Shown here one piece after another: positions 1-20,000 of a stretch of DNA of 20,000 nt (position 1 is the stretch's first letter; every line of letters begins with the position of its first letter). Both the position numbers and the translations under genes were made by a program. Origin of the DNA: Catajapyx aquilonaris (Eukaryota); the NCBI GenBank assembly GCA_000934665.2, contig KZ538075.1, forward strand, positions 111,751 to 131,750, read 5' to 3'. The notes under the pieces are model-generated. The model was not told the DNA's origin, searched no databases, and saw nothing but the letters and a program-made list of their open reading frames with translations.

Positions 1-1206
1 GTCGAGGGCCTCCGCATTAGGAATGCCAGATGTCCAGCAAGTGTTTGCGGAGGAAACAAGGCTATAAAATCTTAAAAGGCGTAAACCACCGGATTCCTTC
101 AGCACCTTACAAGACGCTGCAGCCCCCGTATAGCCCAAACTGGAGCTATAGCCGGAAAGAGGGCTCCGGGTTTTACGGCCAGTTTCTGCCAGTCGTCGTA
201 ATGTTTCCATATGTGGAGAGGGTTCATCTGGGGCCCACTTGGAAACCCGCAGCTTCCTTATCATGGCCTGGGAGTTAGTTATTCTCCACCGGTAACACCA
301 TCATATGGTTTTTTTTTTTCGGAGCCAGACATATGGCCAAGATCCATCGGGGGAGTTCCGCTTCAAAGACGTGTAAACACCTTGCCACTGGGTTTATTGC
401 AGCGTTTCACTCCAGGAAGCAGGCTGTTTTCATTAATTCCCTGCTAGTTAACTGTCTTGACATTGTTAACTCCCAATTGAACGGAGGATGTGACCCGATC
501 TGCAGGGACTTGCGAAACTGCTGGCCACATGCGTGCTATTGTTGTGCAAGGTCGACCAAGGTTGGCTTTGCCGGCGAGAAGTTTATTTTGCTCGCGCATA
601 CCTCTCTACAGCGTAACCCAAGAGTTCCTTGGGGGTCACGGCAAATGTCCGCGACTTGTCACCTGGAGTGGAACATACATTTTTTTTAAAACACATACAT
701 GTATTAAGTTGAAATAGTTGGCAGTACTGGTGCTGGAATATAGTCAATATGTGTACACTGTACCTGCCCTTGACCTAGCCGGAGATGGTCCGGATGCACA
801 AGGAGGGCTTATGCAGGGCGGATCAAAAGTGAGGGGGTGGACAAACAACCTCATTAGTCATGGGTGGAGACTCTCCTTCGACTCTTAGGTCAGGGCGGGT
901 GGAGAGAATCCAATTGCGATCTCCGGGATTATTCTGATCGCAGGTGGTTGTTGACCTCCCTGCTGAAGGTGATGACCACACTTTTGAGGAATGTTCCACA
1001 ACGCCTGTAATGCAGTATGAAATTGGCCAAGATTGTCGTCACTCCCCCCCCAAGATGGTTGTCCAACATCTTGGAGGTGACTCGTGGCGTCACCCTGGCA
1101 ACCCGGTGCTTGAAGGGGTGGAAGAGGAAGGGGGTAGGGTGGGGGGTCTATAGTCTGGCACGTGCGGGGCGGGGTGGGAAGGTAAAAGGGGTTTTGGTTG
1201 TCGGAT

Positions 1207-1230
1207 GGCGTCGTCGGCGTCGGCGTCGTC
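1207..1230 (+). repeat. Short imperfect GGC/GTC triplet repeat
   Basis: ggcgtc gtc ggcgtc ggcgtc gtc. Confidence 0.8.
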
Positions 1231-1584
1231 TGAAGGGTAAAATTAGCCCCGGAAGAGGGGTTGAGTCCCGCGACTGATTCAACGCGTGACTTGATTTGTC
1301 GACGTGAGACGCACGCACGTGGCGTCTGAACCTGTATGTTCCTTAGCTGACCGTGGTCATACAGTCCCAGCCGACGCGGTTTTGTCCGTAATGCGATGCA
1401 AGGCAACGCGACCTACCCCAGCAGTCTATTGATTCGTTCTAATGACAGACTGACGCCGTGCGAAAGGCGTTTACGTGCATAGTGGATTACACCTTTGCTG
1501 GGCCCGAGTTAGATTTCTTACGCGCGGCACAGTTGAATATTGATTAAACCTAATTAAGCTTCAAAGTGATCTTGTCTGAGATGC

Positions 1585-2731: not shown

Positions 2732-4855
2732 AATGCGTGCCGGAGCCTTACCAGGAATAGCCCGGATTGACGAAAATTGATACGTGCTGGTGGACTGCGT
2801 GAGAGAATCTTTACTTCAGGTCTTCAGCACCCTGGCATATGGTAGAAATTGAATTGATGGAACACCCGGAGTCTTTCGATCATTCGAAACGCAGTGCGGC
2901 CACGATTTCTATTCATGACAGCCGACCGTTGCGGGATTAGTATGTATACCGGTATGTCTCGCAGGTAACGCACACACATTTGAGATATTCAGCCAGATCC
3001 GTCGGATGAACAGCGCGATTAATTCCATCGAAAGAGAAGCAGGACATCGATTTGATATAGGGGATTGAAGAGTAACGGTACTACCTTCCACCGACGACAA
3101 TCCTTTTCCTTGGCCTCACCCCTTATGCCGCCCTCCCTTGCACACGTCCTGTTACAAGCACCTGACATCACATTATTCGCGGTGTTGAAGCTCGAAGCGC
3201 TCACGATCACCATAAAACGCACGTTTTACTGCAGGAAAGTTGCAAGAAGGGGGGCTACGGCGTGTCATGGGTTTAGCATACTCGGCGTCGGGGCGTTTGT
3301 CATTTCCTTCATGCAAATGAGGGGCACTGGGACAACTTTGCTTGTTGCCGGATAAATGAGAGAGGGGTTTGATGTGGCACATGTGCGCATATTATTAGCA
3401 AGCCCAAGAGGTGGAGGAACATCAGGAGGAGGTGTTGGTGTCGGGTACCGCCCGCCGAAGTCGATTCCCAATTAAAAATTCCGGGGTGGAGACAGGGGCG
3501 GAGGGAGATAAAATCCGGTCCCTGTGTGCTGAAGGAAACAGGGTTAGGGAGGAGACGGCGTGAGTTGGAATGAATGAGGCTGAGAGAGACAGGAGGGAAT
3601 CTTGCGGCCAGGAGATGTCCGGAGAAACACCGCCTAAACTAGTGACAAATAGTCCGGGGCGCTCAACCGGAGCGGGATTCGGACCGTGTGCTCCCTTTCC
3701 TCAATTCACTCTTGGGTGATCCGGCCTTTCTCACAAGTTTCCAACGGGGGGGAAGAAGGGAGGGAAAAGGGGGCACAACTTCCCCAATCGATCGCACTGG
3801 CGGTTTGACAGAGGCTCCCGGGCTAGTTTGCATAATGACACATTTTCAAGATGGCTGCCAACTCTCTCCCCACCGATTGGATTATATATATATATTTTAA
3901 AAAAAGAGCGTCGCGGCTGTCCTTTGTTCCGGCCACTATTTGGAAGCGTCTGGCTGCCATACACCTGATTAAGCTCACCTGTTGCGCCGCGTGTGTTACA
4001 GTCTCCAGTATGTATGAAACTACCGGGTCAGCTTTCCCAAGGTGGGCTCCCGATTCTAGACACGTTGCCCACACGTCATCGCTGTAAGTGACCCTGGCCA
4101 CATTTGCGTAATTACCTCCTGGGGAGCATTTGTGCGGCCACTAAAAACCGTTTTCATCCGGTTAGAGGTGGGCGAGAGGTGTATGTGATGAGGCTTCAGA
4201 GTGACTCGGGGCTTTTCCGAGGCGACGGCCCCTTTTGCCAAATTTGATTCCTAGAGCCTGCGGACGGAGAGGTTTTAAAAATTCAGGACCAAAACACTTG
4301 CGATGTCACAAACATGCGATTTTGCAGCAGGTGTGTGGAGAAAGTTGCGTCGCGTCTGTACCTCATCTGCATGCGTTGGGGCCTCCGGACTAATTAAACC
4401 GGAGGAAGGGAGGGAAAGATGGGGGAGAGGCAAAAGTGGACCGGGGGAGTGAATGAGTGAGGTGAGGGTGAAAATAATTTCAGCCTGGACGTCACGTGGA
4501 CTCGTTTTTTTTCTCCCCTCCCTCGAGGTGACAAAGCTGGACAAATAATGAGCCATCGTCTAGGGAAGGGGGTCAGTCATGTATATACGCTGGACTTATT
4601 AGCCAGCGAAAAGAGGGGGATCGATTGGGGGTGGGAGATCATTTGGTAACGAATGTGTCAGCCCATGTGTGTCCAACTCCCACTGCACACACACTCACAT
4701 GCTGAGTCAGCACCCCGTTCATCCCCAAGCTCCGCTCAAGCGGCAGGACAAAATCCGGACCAAAGGGCGGGGCAGTTTAGATTCGGCTGGGGATAGTTAG
4801 TTGTGACGGGATTTAGCCAACTTTGCATGGACCTCATCCCACCTCTGGGCCATTA

Positions 4856-4870
4856 GGGGGGGGGGGGGGG
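4856..4870 (+). repeat. G15 homopolymer
   Basis: Direct reading. There is another G15 at 18572-18586. Confidence 0.95.
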
Positions 4871-7800
4871 TAGCCTGGGTACAGGGACAAAGGTTTTTTT
4901 CCCATTCTTTTTTTTTTTTTTTGGCCAGTGGGTCGGAGGGTTGAGGGGCAAGACCCTTCGGGGCGTCGGCAGGGTTTCACTCCTTTTTTAGAACCTCGCC
5001 CCGAGTTTTAAAAGTAGACGACGGGTAGGCGGTCATATCCCGCCTTTCTTTGTTGCCCGAACGGCGTGACCTGGCTACCGGAAGCTGGACCCAACCCCTC
5101 GATAACGGATCAGACTGACCCGTGCATGTGTCACATTATTTTGGGAGGCGGTAAGCAGGGGGAAGATTAATAGCACGGAAGCATGAGTAACCGGCAGATT
5201 CTTCAATCTTTCTTGTGTTTACCCCCCAGCATGCAGCTGCCATTTTCCGATTGTCGCATATATTTTTTTACAGGCGACAAAGGCATGATTAGTGGCAGGG
5301 GATTGGGATGATGAACGGTCGAAAAAGCTTCCTCCTTGGTCTTCCGACAGCCCAGCCGCAGCTCGGTTTCCTTCTTCCGCGTGGAAATGTGCAATTCCTC
5401 TCACCTGTTGCGAATGGCGCAGGAGCCCCGAGTTTGTGTTTGCCGCTCCGTATAATCCCGTCAGTACGCCTGTGCATAACCCGAGTTGTAATGTCAATAC
5501 TGCTAATCATGACAGGCAGGGTGGGAGAGAGAAACTAATTTGCCGCGGAAAAGGAAGTGTGAGGGCGGCCCAAGACGGTCCAGCATCAGATGTGAAATCA
5601 TGGTTCAGGTCTGGTGATTCTGAAGGTGACTGGCTAATTGAACTATGAGCTTGTCCTTGGTTTTGCATCCGGAATAACCGTTACTTTTTTTTTTTTTAAC
5701 TGAGGGGGGGTGGACATCCCCTTGGGGGTTTCCATCGAAACATCTTGCATTGGTGAAACCATTTCTCTCGGGAAGCCGTCGATTCGGATCAAACCACGGC
5801 CATCCGAGTCGGCGCCATCTACTTTGCATACGAGTAGCGCTGCCCCATTACCATTATCTGTAGAAGGGAAGGACTGGAGGGTGTAAACCACTTCTTTATT
5901 CCTCGGGGCGCCTGAACTTTAAGCGAAATTGGCTTTTTATGCGCCATAAAGCCAACATTGGAAGAGGAGCTATACAGTTGGCTCATGGCGGCACTGAAAC
6001 CTCTTCTCGCATGACCAGAATTCGTCAAGACGGAGGCCCCCAGCTCAAGGAAGGAAGCTCATTGTCCTCCTTCTGGCTGCAAAATACCCCCCTCAAGCCC
6101 CACCCTCTTTCCTTTGTCTTCACTTGAGGAGATACCAGTGCAGGGTCATCTACACCCGGAGATATTCACTATCTCCTCCCTAGGCTCCTTCCAAGAGTTG
6201 TCATAAACCTGGAGCGAAAATCCCTGGGTGCCCGCAGGACCTCAGGTTGAGTGCCTACACCGCATACACGCTGGCCGCATAAACATGTGTGTAATTGCCC
6301 AGATGCCCTCACTTTATCCGGGACTTGCCTGCCGGAGTTTACGGCGCTTCTCGCGCCATGAACTTTATGAAAAGCACATTTGAAATTCAGGAGCAGGCGC
6401 CAGTAGTCGTGGTGCAAGCTAGCTACCTGGCGATAAACACCGCTGCCCGAATCGCCCAAGACGACACATGTGGAGGTCATATAATATGTTGGCTCGCGAT
6501 ATGGACCTGCTGGGGAGGGGCCTCCTGCTGGGAAAACTGGCAGCTGTTGGAGATGTTGAGGAAAAACCAAGAGCAGGCCATCTTCTTTGTCCATGCAAAA
6601 AGGGAAGAGAGAAGGAAGGAGTGGGCGGCTGGTGAGAATCCTGGCTGGGTCAGGTCATCTGTGGGTGGCTTTGCACTGGAATAAACTTCCGCGCCTATCT
6701 GGCCAGTAGGATCACCAACCTTCCATCACGCGTCAGGCCCTATCACCGCCGACCATTCTGCTACCGACAACGTTTCTCAGGGAATGGCTGTTTTTACGGC
6801 TGTCCACCTATACCGGTTTTTTACCTTCCCAATGGACAAAAGGTGTGAGTCATCCCACGTCCAAACGCTTATTGTGAATTGCGCGTTTCTGGGCTTACTC
6901 TTTAAGCGGCCAGGCCTCACAGCGGGGCTTTTGCTCAAGGTATATCAATAATCTCTGGAAGGAAAAATCGTGTCCCGTATTTAATGGGCTCACATGTCGT
7001 GACCCTGTCCGGCTGCCTTTATTTTCTATCTACACTGCGTCGCTAAAGTGGACCCCGCCCGAAATACTCGCATTTGAAAATCCTAACAATATTCCACGCA
7101 GCCAGTTCCAGTACTACTTTATTACTATGCAATCGATGCGCTCAGCAGGTAAATCTTCCGGGCAAACTGCAGTTAGAAGGAAATTTGCAGGCAACATAAA
7201 AAAGGCCAGATCACGATGGTGTAAGAGAAGAGGGCAGACGGGTCAAAGGTGGCGATCGAGACCGATATCTCTCCCAAGTGAGGCCCTTTTGGCGCACACA
7301 TGTCGCTGCGAGTCTGTCCGAAACCCACCTATTACATTGTTTTCCCAGGAAGAAAAGGTCCGAGCCGAAGCGCATGAGAATTAGGGTATTCGGAAGGTTA
7401 TCACGAGAGGATTTTTTCGTGAGGGGCCACGTGATTTGATGCCTAGGCATGCCATTAATGTCTGGAACGATGCTCACCTGAGGTTAGCTAATGAACAGTG
7501 GTCATTCACGAAGAGAACGTGACGAGGCTCAATTGCCGTAATCTCAGCCTACGATTTGGGAAGCCTGCGCAATTAGTTAATTATACGAGTCAATGTTGGC
7601 AAAAAGGACCCGATGCCCAAGTGACTGGTCTTGACCCTTGCACGGAATATAGTTAGTAACTGTCAAAAGTAATCGAAGTTGCTACCAATGTGGATAATCC
7701 GGTTTGTCACCACGCCTTGCAATTGCAACTTAACGGTACCGCACAGGGCCGTGTGTGTGAACTTTTTGGTGAAGAGACAGCAGGATAATTTTTATGAAAG

Positions 7801-9924
7801 ACTTCCTGGGATTGCATGGTTTGGAATCGGGAGTGGGAGATGCCGGCGGTGATAAATTCCCGAGTCGGTTGTGCCCCCAATATGGGAAGGTCACGAGCTT
7901 CAATCATTTCTTATCATCGGGGGTGCTAAGAAGGGGCCTAATTGAACCAGGGGTCAACGCGTAGAAAATGCGAGGGTCTCGTTACATGGAGGCCGGCGCA
8001 ATTTGTGTCAGGCCAGCGCTTTCAAACAACATCTTAATGAAAAATATGTTGTCCTCTGGGCTGGCGGGTCATTACTTTTTGGGCACCGGAGCCTGCAAGC
8101 GTTCACCTCTGAGGATACGGGTCATTGGCGCCCTTGTCAACATTCCGTTCGGTTCTGACTTGGCCGGGGTGTGGTCGGAAATTCGCCGCCTGTGTCTTGT
8201 CAAACCCTAATGTTATGGCCTCTATACCCAGTCAGCAATCGTTTAAGCTTATCGTTAGTTGAACCTGCATTACTTTTTTTTTTTTTTTTTTTGCTGGAGA
8301 AAGATGGGGCTGCTCGCCCCGGATGGCATATATCACGGCCTTTCCGCTTCATGTCACCGTCGTAGATGCACAGGCGACACTAACGGCCAGCGACAGGGCT
8401 ACATTCCTCTTCGGCCATCGTGTTTGCATAATTTTGACATTCGGCTCCATTTGAATCTGCCTGGAGGCCTGACGGGACCCCTTTCCTGGTGTGGGACCGA
8501 TGCAAGTGTGGCTTAGGTAAGGTCTTGCCCAGGGCAACGCCCTCGGAGGGGCAGGGCCCACCTTTGGAAAGCCGTTAGAAGGATGAAGGGGGGGACCTTC
8601 TTTCTCGAACTCAATTACAGAGGCCCTTGTACTTCATCAGTGTCTGGAGCGACCGCCATTCGCCCAGCGTCTTGTCAAGACAATGCATGTGTCACCTACA
8701 TTTTTCAGAAATTATTTTTCAATTTGCCCGACCTCCACATATTAGAAAATTATTATATTTTTTGAAGGGGGCTACATCACCTGGTGCTGATTGGCTCCAT
8801 GGTCAGGCCCGCCTGATTTTCCTCCTGAAACTCCAGGTGTTCCACATAAACCTTGGTCCGAACACTCTTTGCCCCCCATCAGCGAGCCCTCCCCATTATT
8901 AATGGCCATTAGTGAGTTTCGGGCGGAGGGAATGGACCCTTTTCTTGCTGCTAAAAAGTTGGAGCCGTTTTTTCCCCTCCCACTGAGGGTTTGCCCTCGA
9001 CCCTCTTTCACCTTGTCTACCTGCCGGACCCAGAAAGTGCCGCATGGAAATGTAAATTGCGCAGTTTTTTATATAGCGAAAGGTGCCCCCCTTCCTTTTT
9101 TTTGACCCCTAGGGCACGCTGCTCCAACCTGCGCGACATTTTTTTCCAATTAACGTATCACCTTACCCACCACATCCTTATCCCTTTATATAGGCTTATA
9201 TACAATATCCTTTTTTTTTTTTACCCTACCTTTACCCCTGTGCGTTTTAACTGCCCTTCTTTTGATTGGAGGCAAGCTGGTGGTCGGAACAAAAGGCGCG
9301 GAATGAAGAGTAGAATACAGGTGTTGGAGCATATCCCTTCCCAGATAGGCATTGAAGCGTTCCATTGTTCTCAGGCAGTAGAAATCTGAGAAACTGACAA
9401 TGTAAATGCCTCTGACTCCGTGCGACAAACGGCTAGTGGCAAAAAAAAAGAGGTTTACACGCCATTTACACATCATGTAGAGCATTTTTTTTAAAGGGAG
9501 CCAATGTTGCTGGTGGAAATTGTAGCAGGGAAAAGAGCTGGGTTGCTTTCTTCTCAGCTGATGCCGGCATTTTCTCTGAGAATGAATTACGGGGGGCTAC
9601 CTTTTACCCGAACAATGCGTCTTAAACAATGCGCGAGTTCATGCTGGGGGTTGAAAGGGGACGCCACTATATTTTAGACAGCGTTATTAAGTGCTTCGCC
9701 TTGTTTAGGTACAGCGCAATTTTTATATTACAAGACAAGTCCCATCACTGTCATCTTGAGCTATGAAGTTATCAGCCGATTTTGGGCACGCGCTGAAATG
9801 GATTGCAGGGATAACGAGGCTGTAAATGGTCAAGGTTGACCAGAAGTGACCTGCCCCATAATGAAGTCCTGCAAAAAGGCATTGTTTCTTTAGTTGGGGT
9901 GGTGGCATTGTCCTGGGGGGAACC

Positions 9925-9968: not shown

Positions 9969-10837
9969 GTGGGCGCCTTGGTAGTGGGCAAGCTGGCGAA
10001 ATGTTTCAAAGTCCGGAAGCGGCCACTGATCGTTTTAGGCACACGTGGCAACGTTGCGGTCCGGAGTAATAAGCTCTTCAGTGCGGCTAATGAAAATTTA
10101 CACCCGCGCATTGCAGGTTAATAGTCTGGGGCATTTTGTGCAGGAGTGTGGGGGGAAGTGTGTGTGGAGTGGCCTCGATGAATTACTCATGCTACCAGAG
10201 GGGGAGGAGGAGATAGGAAGGGGGAGGGGGTGAGCTTCTACTTTCCCCAGTTTGTACTTCTCAGTACTTGAAATTATTGTAGGACGAATAATTCCGGAGG
10301 AATACAAAGCGTGGGGGGAGGCTCGTAATCGGTTGGTAATTGAGGGTATCGAGGTTGGGTAATTACGGCCTGATTGGCTGTAGCATGGAGAAATTGTCAG
10401 GGGGAGGGATAATGAGAGGGCGACAGTGCTGAAATGTTATGGAGCAAAGGATGGATTTGATGGTAGACGTGTGATTTCTAGGGAGCCCAGGTAATAACTG
10501 ATTGATTACACCTATCGATTTGGGTCAGTGGGCCCATAGGTGGGCCCCAATCATTCACCCAAGGGCCAAGACAAGGCGCCATTGTGCAAAGTAAATTTGG
10601 CCATTCTCTACGCTCTTCATCACTGTCTGCTGGCAAAGCAGAGAACCACTTCACACCCATATAGAAGTTGGTGCCTGAAGGTGGGGTCGGCCAGTAACAA
10701 ATGTGCATGTAAGGAAACCACGTGAGATATGTGGAGAGACGTGACCTCTTGGGCGTCAGTCCCGGAGTCCAAGGAATGCTCGCTTAATTACGTGCCAGTT
10801 TCCACAAGTGTCTTGTGTTTTAAAAAGCATTACATCT

Positions 10838-10875
10838 CACTAATAGCCATTTTTCTTCTCCTTCCGCAGGTAAGT
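10838..10875 (+). other. Candidate recursive splice site (3' acceptor fused to 5' donor, AG|GT at 10869/10870), or a strong exon-end donor
   Basis: Sequence cactaat-agcca-tttttcttctccttcc-gcag|gtaagt. It has a CTRAY branch motif (A at 10843, 27 nt before the junction), 16 consecutive pyrimidines (10850-10865), CAG, then a perfect GTAAGT donor. Confidence 0.6.
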
Positions 10876-11515
10876 GACCGGAGAACCAGCTGCGTGGTCT
10901 GTCCTTCGCTGCTGACGTGATGTAAGGATGGAGTGAGGCGATGCATGTTCAAGCACTTCTTCTGGGGGCCAGGTCAGGGCACTTAATAAGGGCTGCGCTG
11001 ACACACGGGGGACATGTTCAGGATAAACCTGCGTGGTTTATGTGAATAGGGGGGATCGCCGTTACTAGCAGGGATTGCAGTGTTCAATTGCGGACACGTT
11101 TTCGTGAAGAGTCCGGGGTGGTCTCCTTTGTCCATTGGAGGAGCTGATGGTGCAATTTGGGGGTCGCCAGCATGATGCCCCGACCACGGTGTCGCCACGG
11201 TATGGCCATAGGGTATGTTAAAAGTTGCGCCGACTTCCGGTCCTGCTGGCCATTTTCGGACCCACACGGTCACCAATAATCCGCTCAACCCAATCGCCAT
11301 GCCAGTTATGAACCCGTATTTACAGGTCTTTGGGTCGCCTAATCTCGATAATAGGATTGGTCAGAAGCCTGTCCCCGTCTGGGTCAGGAGGGTATTTCAG
11401 ATGGCCAACGGAAAGAATGAGAGTAGGGAGAAAGGGGACCTGACAATGATGGATGAGAGATAATGTAAATCATTAAGCGTCACAAAGGGAATCTCATGCC
11501 CGGACAAAAAAATAA

Positions 11516-11559: not shown

Positions 11560-12747
11560 ACAATGATATCGATGGTTGCTTGTAGTGATAATAGCCCTGG
11601 CAAGACAGGAAATTAAACCTGGGGAGGAATGGTTTGCTAGCTCTGCTGGCTGGATGTGTAGGAACAAGTTGCTCGCAATTCACTGTCAGACAAGACGCCT
11701 TCACATTTTTGCCTTCTTCAACTCCTGATCGCCCTCTGAAGGTCTCCTGAGGTGTGACAAGAACCGCGTAAGGTCACCGCCAGGAAACTCGGGTCAGATC
11801 CGGCGAAAATCCGTCACCGGTCACATTCAAAGTCGACCACAAGGAACTAAAACGCTTTTTCAGCCGTGTAATTTAAATGAGTTTCAAAGGATTTAAGCCC
11901 TTTCGGGAAAGAGTTATTACAACAGAGGTGGTTCAACTTGAGATTAGGAGCCGACTTCAATCGGCTGCTTTTCCATTTATGACCCGTTCCATTAGAGCTG
12001 TTTCCATGTATGATGCTGAGGGCCCCAAGCCCATCCCCAAAGAGCAGCGTTCAATTTTCCCGGCCTGGGGGAAAAAAATAGGGGCTGGTGGGAAACTGGT
12101 CCGGTAGAGGTCGAGCCGATGGTCACTTGACCCTTCGAAGGGATAAGGTCAGAAGGGACATCTCTGGCAGCAGCTGCAACCCTTCTTTTTCAAATCGGGT
12201 TTTTCCGTTGGAGGCCTTTTACATTTTTGAACCGCCCAATTCATCAATAAATGTCCATTCATTGGCATGGATAGGGAGGGGATGGGACCCTTGCTTTTGC
12301 AGATGTTCCAAAAATTGAAGCAATTGCAAAAGGTCGACTCAGTCGGAATGATTCAAAAATTTATGCCCTCTAAGATTGATCCGACTCTTTTCCGTTTCAC
12401 TTCGGACGAGATTACTTCGGAACGAAATCTGATAATGGCCCGAAACGGTTTCCTCTTTTATCTTCCAAACGAAGTAATTCGCGCGGAAATCTCCCCAAGT
12501 TTTGTAATTGACAGGGAAGTTTGCAAATTATGGCGCAATAATTCAATTAACGCCACACGGACGCGGATGTTTTGACTCTCTGTCTTGCGATTGGGCAACA
12601 AATATCCGGATTTTTGTGAGAGAAAAAAAAGCGTAATTCTTGAACCTTCCCCCGAAGCGTGAGGTAATTTTCGAACAAAAAGTCTGCAAAAGGGCGGAAA
12701 CGAATAGGAAGTAAGAGCACAAAAGTCGGCAGATTTATTTCCCGGCC

Positions 12748-12836
12748 AGGTCAAAGGGTAGCAACCGGCCACCAGGGGAGGGTATAGAGGGGGAAAACCC
12801 ACGCTCTGCTGACCTCTCGACGGGTCACTCTGACCC
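12748..12836. promoter_or_regulatory. Composite nuclear-receptor response element candidate (ER6 + perfect IR3, with an upstream DR1-like site)
   Basis: TGACCT(12810-15)-N6-GGGTCA(12822-27)-ctc-TGACCC(12831-36), plus AGGTCA-a-AGGGTA at 12748-12760. Confidence 0.3.
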
Positions 12837-13061: not shown

Positions 13062-13799
13062 TAGTATATAATTCGGGGGTCCTGGTCTTACAAGGCATGG
13101 TTTCCAAATGGAGAACCCCTTTCATTTCTATTTTTTTTTTTTTTCAGGGGGGGTATTCCCTAACCATTTCCATTCTGGAAGGTCCCAACCACACTCGGCT
13201 CCTGGAATTCACCCGCCTTCTTCCCGGGAGGGGAAGAAAAAAAATCCGACAGCTGTAACAAAATACACGAAAGCCTAAGGGTGGTGGGGGGTGTTTTAGA
13301 GAAAAAAAAGGACGAAGAGGGGGCTATTTCTGTTCCTCTGGCGGCCTTCCAGTGGTGAGGAAAGAGGCAGAGGGTTTTTTGGACACAGAGACCATCTTTG
13401 GCCTGTAACGGCTTCCAGGAGATTGTCCATGGTTCAAAAGCCTCTGAGCCAATGATGCGGATGAATCATTTTCAAAATGGACTGGTCAATGCCAGGTGCT
13501 GGTTTTTCTTTTTGGAACCGACTGTACTTTTTTATATATAAAAGGCGCGTACTAAAGAGATCAGAAGCCGACTACCGTATAATTGGTCCATTCTTCACAC
13601 ATGTCGTTCCATTATACGTGCTTGCGTAAGATGGTATCAGTGCATCGTATGCTTGTTTATCATGGGAATCATCACCACCTCTGAGGATGGGATGCGAACC
13701 CGGATATTTTCGGTGTGAACAATTTTTTTCCAGACTTCCCGATAGTGGAACCGGGAACTACTGCCCACTAGTTTTCTCCCAATTGAGCAAAAAGGCAGC

Positions 13800-14420
13800 C
13801 GCTAATTAATAATAACCGTGCAACACAAAAAAAGCGTGGAAATTCTATGACCGGAAGCATTCATGGATTAACTGGACACTGGTGATGGCCCTTTTTTTTT
13901 TTCATGACCTGCATCAAGATCTGTGCGTGAGAAATCCGCCGCCTAATGGCGGTGTTTCCCAACTTCATTTTTTTTGCACCTTTTTCCCGTCATCATTTCC
14001 TTGCATCAGGTCAGTTTAGTTTCAAGGTTGAGGACCGCGGTACATACACACACAAAAAATGGCTGATCCGGATTTTTGTTCGAGGGTCACCGGTTGTGTA
14101 ATCTTTTCGCATGGTGTTGGCAAAAGGTGTGAGAAGAACCAGACGTGACGTGGCCACATATGTGAGTGATTAGGGGAGTTAATTAGCGCTCGACAGGTTG
14201 GTCCCGATTGCCTGCCATCTGGGATAGTTTCGACACTAAGGTTAGCCGGATTAATTAGCGGTGGGGTTAAATGTGTGGCCAGCGTTCGGAAAATTTTCGT
14301 GACAAGCGGCGGTTTTTTTTGGGCGCGTGTAAAAACCGCATCTTCATCACTATTAAGCGGGGGAACTGCGACATGTGAGTCATACCGTACATACCCACCG
14401 GGTAATTAATCCATTACAAG
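13800..14420. promoter_or_regulatory. Enhancer-like motif cluster (homeodomain, CSL/Su(H), T-box, E-box)
   Basis: TAATTA at 13803, 14180, 14252 and 14403; YGTGAGAA at 13926 and 14128; AGGTGTGA at 14125; CATATG at 14157. Confidence 0.25.
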
Positions 14421-16230
14421 TCATTTGGTCGCAGTTGCGCTGGGAACCTGCCATCCGACATGTTTCAAAAAAAAGAGAGAGAGAGATATTAGTATAATTT
14501 ATGTGAACCTTAAAATCCAGTTTTATGTCTGCCCAGGTGTAGTTTGCTGTTGAGAGAAGACTTATAGCGGTGTCGGGTTTACTGCGCAACTTCTTGCACC
14601 TCGCAAGTTCATTTTGGCGATTATTTTATTGGCAGACGAGTTAGTATGCTATTCATTAGGCCCACCGGTTTCCTTTATGCATTGTCGGCCAACATGAATT
14701 TGGGCATGTCGGAACGTCAAACCCAATTGGGTTTATTGGGAAGTGGCTGATGGATGGCATCTGTGGACAGGTGCTGGAGTTCTTTTTTATATATATACCG
14801 ATGAGCGACTCTTACTCGGTTGGATAAGCTTGGTCGGTCAGCAAGTCCCTTCTTGTCGTCATCCTCATCATCTCTTCGCCCCAATGGAGCCCATCACGTG
14901 GTGGTCACCCACTTGGAAATCGGAAATCCACCCCTGGATTGCACGCCTTGACGCACCTAGGTGCTAGGAGGTGAAAGGACTTTGGGCTCGATTGGACATC
15001 GATCAGGCCGTGGTCTAATAAGCGTTTTCCGGCTGAGACAATACAGGCATGCCGAGTGTGAGTCATGTGTGCAGGGAGCATATGTGGATTCCGGGCTTCC
15101 AAGGGAGGAAGAGAACACGTGGAAGTCATAATCGGAGGGTCTCTCTTCCAAGATTAGCCCAACAGAGAGCAGTTTTTTTTAACGTGTTGTCTGCTGCTGT
15201 CGCCTATAGGGCAAGTTTCATGTCGAAAAGTCTGCGTGTCTGGAGGGAATCAATTCGGATCCTGCAACCTACCCACCCACCCACCAAACAACAAACTCCC
15301 CACCTTGTTTTAATGGCCGGTCCCCTGGCCAGCCTTGGGTGTGGTCACTCCGGCGTCAGGGTCACTGGCGAGGGGGATCCGGAGGGAGGGGCTATTTTTT
15401 GGAGAGTAAAAAGAGTTGGGGGTGTTTTAGACTGCTGGCCCCATCAGCTCCATTACATCACATGGCGTTGGAAATCCAGCTTGGAGGAAGGGGTGTTCCC
15501 CCCCCCCCCCTCTCTTCCTTCCAGAGAACGATTTACGGCGGACAGGTATTGGGGAATAAATTTGGCTTCCGGACGGCTAGCCTCCATTTTATGGTCAAGG
15601 AAAAAGTCCGGGACGGGCTAGAGTTATTCTTACGGGCAGTTGTCTAGGACTTTTTGCAATTTATTTATTGAGATAGGGCAAACACAGGGCGGGCAGAAAA
15701 AAAAAGTGGTTGGGTCAGTGTGTTTATCTGCTAATGTGCGAGTGATTCATTAATTCGTGTCGACACTAGGAAGAATTGCACAACTAAATACAAAACATTG
15801 CTCCTGTTCCTTCCCCAGGCTTCATTGCCATGCTAAACAGAGTGAAGCAGGGAGCGCGGAAATGGCCGTGGGTGTGTGTGGGGGGTCGTTAAGAACCATC
15901 TCCACGACCTATATGATTAGAATGCAACCTGAGATTTGAGGAGGGGGGGGGGGGGNATGAAGGGGTTGAGAGAGCCGGAGGGTTGACCTGGGATATGCAA
16001 GCAAGTGTGTAATGGCTTACTTTGCGGAGGAAGAGGGTGGGCTGGCTGGCAGGGGTGGAAATAGGCGCGTGCAAATGGGGAGTTGGCCTGTGCGGTCGCC
16101 TGCTACCTGCTGTGTGGTTAGTTATTCGCGGGGGAAGGGTAATTTCACTAGATCACGCATCGGCGCCCGCCTGGTACAGTTGCTCGCGTATGAAACGTGA
16201 TGGGGAAGTGCTACTGTAGGTTACTGGGAC

Positions 16231-16579: not shown

Positions 16580-18959
16580 TGTGTGTCTTGTGCTTTTCCT
16601 TCCCCCAACTACCTATCAAATGAAGGTGTTATCTGTTAGAACCGATGCCGAGAGGGTGCTAAAATGAACTGTTCGTATTGGCGCATCCTGCTAGAGGGCT
16701 CTATTTAGATAGTTCCTTTCAGGCTGGATTAGGTTGCGGAGGATTGGCGCCGTCCATATAGATCATTGTCAGCAGCGTTTATCGCCGTGGCTACGTCCAT
16801 TCGCGTATTGTTTACGACGCTCAAAGGTGACGAGCAGCAAAATTGTCCTAATTAACTATGAGAGCGGGCCATAATTCAGAATCGATAACGAGTCCATCTA
16901 TGTGTATAGTGGCCAGACTTGAACCAAAGAGTGGAGGCTGAGCATTGGTCAAAAGTGGAAAATATGAGCTGTATAAAGCAGACAGGTCCCTCTCTCCCAT
17001 CAGGAGGCCCAAATTATCTGTGCGATTGTATCAAAGCCCAGACGTGATTTAACCCGCAGAGAAGTGGATGGCCCCCCTGAACCCTTTTGGGCTGGGGAGG
17101 GCGTTGGCCATGGCCCCGACGGTCCGTCCGGCAGCCCCCAACACTTGAAAGTCGCCCTTTGCAGTAGTTCATTATCGCCTCTTGCGGAGGCTGTCCGAGG
17201 TGATGGATGATACTCCCACTCGGAGAGAGAGAGAGACTAATAGGCGTGCAATATGCCCAAATAGCCACCATTCAAAGACCGGACAGGATTTTACAACCTG
17301 CAAGCAGTTTTGAGGATAATACTATTTAGAGATGGCTCCAACCCACCTGAGTCGCGAACAATGGTGGAGGACCCAGGGTGTATGCCCTTCCTTACCCTTG
17401 ACCTCTGACGGGATTGCTTCTCACCTTTCCGCCTGGTTTTTTGCGCACATGGCATATGCCACACATCGACAGTGGACTTTTTAGTCGGTGTCCAGTATGC
17501 AAATCGACTGACACGCCATTAAGCTCAATACAGCCCTCTTTGATATGGTTTGAGTGGTGGCAGCGATGGAAAAGTTGGCCCCAGGGAGACACGCTCCAAT
17601 GATTAAGACGCCATCTTTGACTCCGCCACAAGGTCAGTGACAGGCGCCACCTTGCCAATTAAGGTAGGCGGAAAGAGGGCAAGGGAGAGGACAGTAACCG
17701 GGGGGGTGGTTCTCAGGATGGTCGAAATTCTTCAGCATCTTATGTTTATAGCCATGAAGGAGGGCAGATAATTAGAAGATGGTGGCCTGGGGTCATGGCG
17801 CGTGATTAGAGGCGCCGGGGAAGAGCCAAAAATCGGCCTAAGTGAATGGGTAACTATTAACTTTCCTCAGCCCATTAGTTCCGGTGGCGGAGGCCAAATA
17901 AATCGTGACTCTTCCCTGCCACTGTTCTTATCATTCGAGTCTGGACAGTAGCGGTAGAGTGACGTGGAAAGTTGGCAAAACCTGTTGGTTGACCACTCCA
18001 GGGATCATCGATGACCGTGGGGTCAAATATGTGAGAGTTGGGATATGAGGCGGATGAAAAAATATGCATAACTGAGTCTCGTTTCATCAACATCTCAAGT
18101 ACGGTGTTCGTGACTTCTATAGAATGAGGTGGGCAGGTGAAGAAAAGGGGGGTGAGATGGAGGGGGAGGAGAATTTAAAAAGAAAAAAAAAAAACCGAAA
18201 AGGTAACGGAGAGAAGCCTGATTCCCACAGCCTCCACTTTCTTTCGGAGGAAAGCTTTGCCCCGGACCCCACCTTTAAATCCTATATGACGACCGGTCAT
18301 TTGGCAAGTTCCGAGTCTAGAATGCGGTTTGGGATGAGGTGATAGCAACTGTTCTAGCCATTTTCCCCTCCCGAACTTTTTTTGCTGACAGGTAAAAAAA
18401 ATAACCGCATGTAATATTCGACCTTTGCCAGTTTTTAAAGTTGAACTACCCCAGGCGGTAGATTTTGCCGACTTTGTTAGTAATGAGTTCGCTTGACCAG
18501 ATACATTGCTTTGCCCCCGTGCGTCAGAGCCGGCATTAAAAATTACCCGGAAGCCAGCCCCAGGAAAGTAAGGGGGGGGGGGGGGGTGCGTTATCCGCGC
18601 AAAAGTTGGTAGGGCTAAGTGTTAATGCGAAAGGGAAATGTACATCTGGAAGGCATAGAAAGCAGAAGTACATAAATCTATCAAGTGTCGAGAACGAAAA
18701 AAAAAAGCGAACACTCACCCGGTTTGAAAGACGACGCAACTGCAAACCATAAACCAGTCAGGAAAGGTCACCTTCGACCTGGTAGGTCAGTGTCGCGACG
18801 GATGCGGGTGATATCCGTATCCGAAAGATATGACAGTTGTCTCAACCTCGACCTAGCAAGAAAGCTTTTTCCCGCGCTCGAAGTCCATCAACCTATGCAG
18901 TTATGTTTTGCAGCTGGCAAAGAGGTCATGGGGAATGGTGGGAAACGAGAGTGACCACG

Positions 18960-18977: not shown

Positions 18978-20000
18978 GGGAAAACGGAGGTCAGCTCTGT
19001 TAGTTCTGCAGCAGCAGGAGAAGACTCTTCTGGGGGGCTGTGGAATGCAGGGTGGTCGAGGGGTTGCTAATAAATCCAGACTCAGGTGACGTTAAGAGTT
19101 AGCACTTGGGTGTCTGGAATTGGAGGCACTAAGGCCTTTGGGCGTAGCCTAAGCCATGTCCTTTTCTTTGCCTGCCTGTTTATAGTTTCTTCAATGGCCA
19201 GCTTTTTGTATGTCGCAGCCATCAAATATATATATTTTTTACCAACTCTATTTTTGGTTTTGTACGATTATAACACGGCTGTACAGAGCCGGTTGGTAGT
19301 ATAATTTGAACTGGCCTACGGTTCGCACGAGTTCAGGTCGATCCTGATTTTTGTAGTGTCCCTCGTGGTGCTCTCATTGCAGAGGGGGAAAAAAAAAACT
19401 CGTTTGATGAGAACAAGCCAGTCGGTTCGTGATAGAAAACGCATGTCTTCAGGGAGGAAAAATGCGTGATAAAAACATTGGCACGCGAATAATACAGGGC
19501 GTGCAGATCATCATATCGGCGCAAGTTTGAACCATCCGAGTATAAATAACCGGGACATATATTTCCGGATACAGCTAGGGGCCGTGGGGGTGACGAGAAG
19601 AAAAGCAAGCTCATTGAAAGTAATGACTGTCATTAGAGTGTAATACTGTGAACCCGCCAGAGTTCGTGAGCCTTTCAAGCTGACACGGAGCGGACGCAAG
19701 AAATTGCACTCAGCGACCTCCGTCTTCTTAACAATTTTTTTTGTCTCTTGCATTGTTGCCATCATGAATCGTACCTGATGGAAGAATTAAGGGGACAGCC
19801 ATATCTGAGCACTCTGTGCAGGTGGAAAGGTCAGGGTCAGTCTGGCATTTATTTGACGCGGTTAACCTTGGTGCTGGCCAAATGAATGTGTGGATGCTGA
19901 TCAATACATGTAGGCTTCTTATTTTTAGGAGGCAGTGTATGCAAATCGGCAACACAGGATCCTCTCCCCATTCTCTACAAAAAAAAAGCAGGGGGGGGGG

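Follow-up and report, generated by a model that had tools for sequence, protein, structure and literature searches.

We asked whether a position on the + strand of a 20-kb window (the whole stretch of DNA analysed here), at which acceptor-like sequence is followed directly by donor-like sequence, could be a recursive splice site, or ratchet point, or whether it is better explained as an ordinary exon boundary, as part of a U1 snRNA gene on the other strand or as an accident of sequence. A sequence-only reading of the window had described a ratchet-point signature there, consisting of CACTAAT, a 16-nt pyrimidine tract and CAG, then GTAAGT, in a window with no clear coding exon. On re-reading, these motifs, their coordinates and the junction at 10869/10870 are all as it had given them.

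Anatomy, rarity and setting of the candidate site

The elements of the site and of its flanks are collected in Table 1. The predicted branch-point A lies 26 nt 5' of the acceptor AG, and six bases separate the branch-point-like motif from the pyrimidine tract on the + strand. The stretch from the branch A to the acceptor contains one other AG, at 10845-10846; it falls 2-3 nt past the branch A, a distance that is generally too short for use as an acceptor. The tract is one of 8 in the window that reach at least 16 nt on the + strand, and acceptor positions -6/-5 (10864-10865), within it, are CC. Downstream of the junction, two weaker donors delimit a candidate cryptic exon; donor strength was graded by consensus matches, at the motif level. 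Such a downstream donor with its cryptic exon is a prediction of recursive splicing that was absent from the sequence-only reading, and it too is borne out at the motif level. Read by eye, the shorter form of this exon carries stops in all three frames (TAA at 10871, TGA at 10875 and TGA at 10918). We found no RNA structure at the site (z = -0.88), and no CpG island or change in G+C there in the window profile.

Table 1. Positions of the sequence elements at and around the candidate site, in window coordinates.
Feature	Position	Strand	Remarks
A/T-rich TTTTAAAAAG, taken to be TATA-like	10818-10827	+	about 30 nt 5' of the tract start
Branch-point-like CACTAAT	10838-10844	+	predicted branch A at 10843; read from sequence
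CCATTTT, taken to be initiator-like	10847-10853	+	read from sequence
Pure pyrimidine tract, 16 nt, tttttcttctccttcc (also written TTTTTCTTCTCCTTCC)	10850-10865	+	read from sequence
Acceptor GCAG	10866-10869	+	G at 10866, CAG at 10867-10869; junction 10869/10870
Donor GTAAGT	10870-10875	+	with the preceding CAG, the full 9-mer CAG/GTAAGT
Candidate cryptic recursive-splicing exon, 52 nt (63 nt with the donor at 10933)	10870-10921	+	sequence and donor list
Weaker downstream donor GAT/GTAAGG	10922-10927	+	donor list; +52
Second weaker downstream donor GGA/GTGAGG	10933-10938	+	donor list; +63

This composite is real and statistically unusual in the window. The pattern Y8-N-CAG-GTRAGT has one match on both strands of the 20 kb, versus 0.01 expected, and a match was present in 1 of 200 dinucleotide-preserving shuffles; among the 185 AGGT on the two strands, only one extends to AGGTRAGT. 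Because real DNA is richer in pyrimidine tracts than shuffled sequence, the null for the strong form of the motif was built on the 60 pyrimidine tracts of at least 12 nt that the window itself contains. Under this null, the expectation for a tract followed by N and CAGGTAAGT is 2.3e-4 per 20 kb, or about 3 per 250 Mb. Matches to a branch point and to a downstream donor lower the chance expectation (0.01 for the loose form, 2.3e-4 for the strong form) further. For this sequence, the chance of finding CTRAY in the branch window (-18 to -40) is 7%, and that of finding ACTAAY there is 0.7%; the chance of a GTRAG at +30 to +150 is 21%, and that of a GTAAG at +30 to +100 is 4%. The product of the single chances puts the full composite (tract, CAG/GTAAGT, branch point and downstream donor) at about 3e-6 expected per window, a loose figure for features that were partly chosen after the sequence was seen.

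GTAAGT itself occurs twice on the + strand of the window and nowhere on the - strand. Both copies share the 10-mer GTAAGTGACC (4084-4093 and 10870-10879). We rejected the instance at 4084 as a related copy of the site: its flanks do not align with those of 10870.

The claim that the window contains no clear coding exon held as far as it was tested, by periodicity, by a Pfam scan of 150 of 232 frames and by a homologue search with three ORFs. There is no peak of 3-base periodicity in the window. Pfam gave nothing above cut-off in the 150 longest (28 + 122) of the 232 stop-to-stop frames of at least 50 aa; below cut-off it listed 5 weak matches, with E between 0.003 and 0.03. For the ORFs at 12231-12572 (+), 888-1412 (-) and 15037-15618 (+), a search restricted to proteins of comparable length gave no homologue. 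Short or lineage-specific exons may be present within the window.

Searches for RNA families and repeats were similarly empty. No Rfam family reached its gathering score anywhere in the window, and the sensitive RNA-family scans returned 9 matches over the whole window and 2 around the site, all far under the cut-offs and at chance level. A weak match to DLG2-AS1_2, an Rfam lncRNA region, at 10578-10703 (+) reached 14.4 bits where the gathering score is 70, with E = 0.44 in a 701-nt search, and we took it as chance. The only repeats in the window are families built on homopolymers and a single A/T tandem repeat of 39 nt. Contigs from DNA runs of a single sample and study, possibly the one from which the window derives, span it at about 17-38x, a single-copy depth, without joints; a further small run aligned nowhere on it, and a scan of metagenome contigs for the site core gave 0 matches. 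By its sequence, the window looks like a long intron or a gene desert, a resemblance that does not discriminate between the two; it may be intergenic or lie within a - strand gene.

The recursive-splicing reading and related systems

The best single explanation of the site, in our judgement, is that a long + strand intron is subdivided here by a recursive splice site (ratchet point). We put this forward tentatively, as a reading that falls somewhat short of probable, and that estimate takes for granted, as its prior, that sites of this kind occur in long introns of the organism. In its support, the anatomy is complete, correctly spaced and unique in the window, and of the predictions for a recursive site that the sequence allows to be checked, all are borne out but one, the fly-specific TT at -6/-5.

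Under the recursive reading, the branch A at 10843, the 16-nt tract and CAG would be recognised as a 3' splice site, with the weaker donor at 10922 or 10933 assisting, so that a cryptic exon of 52 or 63 nt would be defined. The upstream exon would be joined to 10870, and the joining would set GTAAGT directly after that exon, recreating a full-strength 5' splice site. This recreated donor would then beat the weaker donor downstream, and the cryptic exon would be removed together with the remaining intron in the next step, leaving nothing of the cryptic exon in the mRNA. We infer the splicing mechanism, and with it transcription, strand and membership in an intron, from the anatomy and the rarity that are observed in the sequence.

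A first comparison is with flies. In the current fly model (PMC8605326), a ratchet point does not really have zero length: the splicing machinery must first recognise a cryptic exon that is about 50 nt long, has a weaker donor and as a rule is out of frame, and this exon is then skipped because the regenerated ratchet-point donor is stronger. Pai et al. likewise describe strong donors as enriched after recursive sites. Like the ratchet points of Drosophila (Ubx, kuz, Bx and several hundred others), the candidate has acceptor and donor juxtaposed at AG/GT, a prominent tract and GTAAGT, and it shares with them an out-of-frame cryptic exon of about 50 nt, a weaker donor and a long setting that is exon-free as far as tested.

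The difference lies at -6/-5, where the candidate has CC and flies have a near-invariant TT: the dinucleotide is TT in 196 of 197 Drosophila ratchet points according to Duff et al. (bioRxiv version), and in 47 of 47 rows of part 1 of 11 of table S1 of Pai et al. The candidate thus lacks a feature that defines the fly family. The ratchet-point signature of the sequence-only reading stands in its juxtaposed acceptor and donor, its branch point and its tract, and overall the interpretation given there is partly supported.

Long neural genes of vertebrates are reported to carry recursive splice sites and RS-exons (Sibley 2015; Blazquez 2018). The host differs from vertebrate systems in its CpG observed/expected ratio of 0.75, which is unlike vertebrate DNA. 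What the candidate would have in common with vertebrate RS-exons is exon definition followed by donor competition, as set out in PMC8605326 and PMC6224609.

A further resemblance is to dual-specific splice sites, at which an AGGT can act at the 5' or the 3' end of an intron (Duan et al. 2024, PMC10809524). What defines these sites is that they have been seen to work in either role, and it is in tandem-repeat genes that the enriched cases lie. The candidate is like them in having an AGGT of intronic type with both acceptor and donor signals; it is unlike them in that there is no repeat at the site and that it is known here from sequence alone.

In the literature surveyed, recursive splice sites are those of flies and vertebrates and a predicted site in locust. 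Were the candidate in use, it would add to these sites, possibly in a lineage with few or none documented, and would offer a natural test of the need for TT at -6/-5. The stronger proposition, that outside flies and vertebrates it works as a zero-length recursive site whose acceptor is C-rich, with CC at -6/-5, seems to us possible and rather doubtful. Were it true, the cryptic-exon ratchet mechanism would be used more widely among eukaryotes, and the TT rule of flies would be a habit of that lineage and no requirement of the mechanism.

Alternative explanations

A serious rival, which we regard as rather less likely than the recursive reading, is that the juxtaposition arose by chance and has no function, in untranscribed DNA or on an antisense strand. 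At the tract frequency of the window, the roughly 3 strong matches per 250 Mb would come about with no recursive splicing at all; the TT of flies is missing, and neither a compositional feature nor RNA structure (z = -0.88) marks the site. Against chance stands the expectation of only about 3e-6 per window for the full composite, so that real sites, even if modest in number across the genome, would outweigh accidental ones, and GTAAGT is scarce in the window, with its two + strand occurrences and none on the - strand.

The site could also be an ordinary boundary that serves in one role, whether it ends a non-coding or first exon as a donor or opens a small, retained non-coding exon as an acceptor; we consider this unlikely. 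CAG/GTAAGT is an ideal donor, and a first exon could lie behind the A/T-rich, TATA-like TTTTAAAAAG and the initiator-like CCATTTT; the four ACGTG at 10720-10915, including CACGTG at 10719, could be a promoter-like cluster. Yet the first exon so defined, a possible but weak version of this explanation, would be very short, measuring only about 15-21 nt with pyrimidine-rich last bases. The frames upstream of 10869 have 48, 15 and 7 open codons, too short for a long coding exon, and the frame at 10726-10917 has no Pfam match. The 9 kb downstream yielded no coding exon in the frames that were scanned, a CpG island is absent, and no snoRNA or other RNA family was found in the window. The branch point (7%) and the downstream donors (21%) would, moreover, have to be coincidences. 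A short pyrimidine-start first exon of the ribosomal-protein or snoRNA-host type does not fit the sequence: terminal-oligopyrimidine starts consist of C followed by pyrimidines, and C10848 is followed by A, with neither a snoRNA nor a downstream coding exon found. In the acceptor version, the small exon at 10870-10921 or 10870-10932 would be kept in the RNA, but it has stops in all frames and after splicing would carry the regenerated strong donor; this version shades into the recursive reading.

A U1 snRNA gene or pseudogene on the - strand was considered on the strength of the 9-mer, as CAGGTAAGT reads ACTTACCTG on that strand, identical to the 5' end of U1; a purine-rich run and a loose resemblance, judged by eye, follow further along the - strand. 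When both strands of 10400-11100 were scanned sensitively with covariance models, the matches up to E = 10 included no U1 and were only two, both unrelated and weak, and the scans of the whole window were also without U1. We therefore rejected this explanation, whose probability we regard as very low.

Composition and assembly of the window

The window has a G+C content of 50%, higher than that of Drosophila, so that its host is probably no Drosophila, and a CpG observed/expected ratio of 0.75, unlike vertebrate DNA. On the + strand, G exceeds C in 18 of 20 1-kb bins (mean skew about +0.10), and T exceeds A overall. An excess of G over C and of T over A is the direction seen in the sense strands of transcribed DNA, and the skew weakly favours transcription of the + strand; the G-over-C excess could reflect the direction of transcription, replication or G-rich motifs. 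GGGGGG occurs 58 times on the + strand versus 25 times on the - strand.

CpG observed/expected exceeds 1 at 1001-1750, 2751-3250, 12251-12750, 14001-14750 and 19251-19750; none of these stretches overlaps the site, and there is no coding signal inside them. The individual + strand ACGTG are at 10720, 10739, 10790 and 10915, with the palindrome CACGTG at 10719; at an average of about one ACGTG per kb over the two strands, this is a mild local excess at 10719-10920.

Homopolymers of G or C reach 13-15 nt at 2718-2731, 4856-4870, 15498-15510, 15943-15955 and 18572-18586, and T runs reach up to 19 nt (4908-4922, 8274-8292 and 13131-13144). The window's four N (2715-2717 and 15956) adjoin two of the G/C runs, and the DNA-run contigs break at these homopolymer places, which for both reasons look like weak points of the assembly. 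The DNA-run contigs also lack one base at 1611, where the contig concerned overlaps the window only in part, and four bases at 2714, beside the N run; these gaps are probably repeat or assembly differences.
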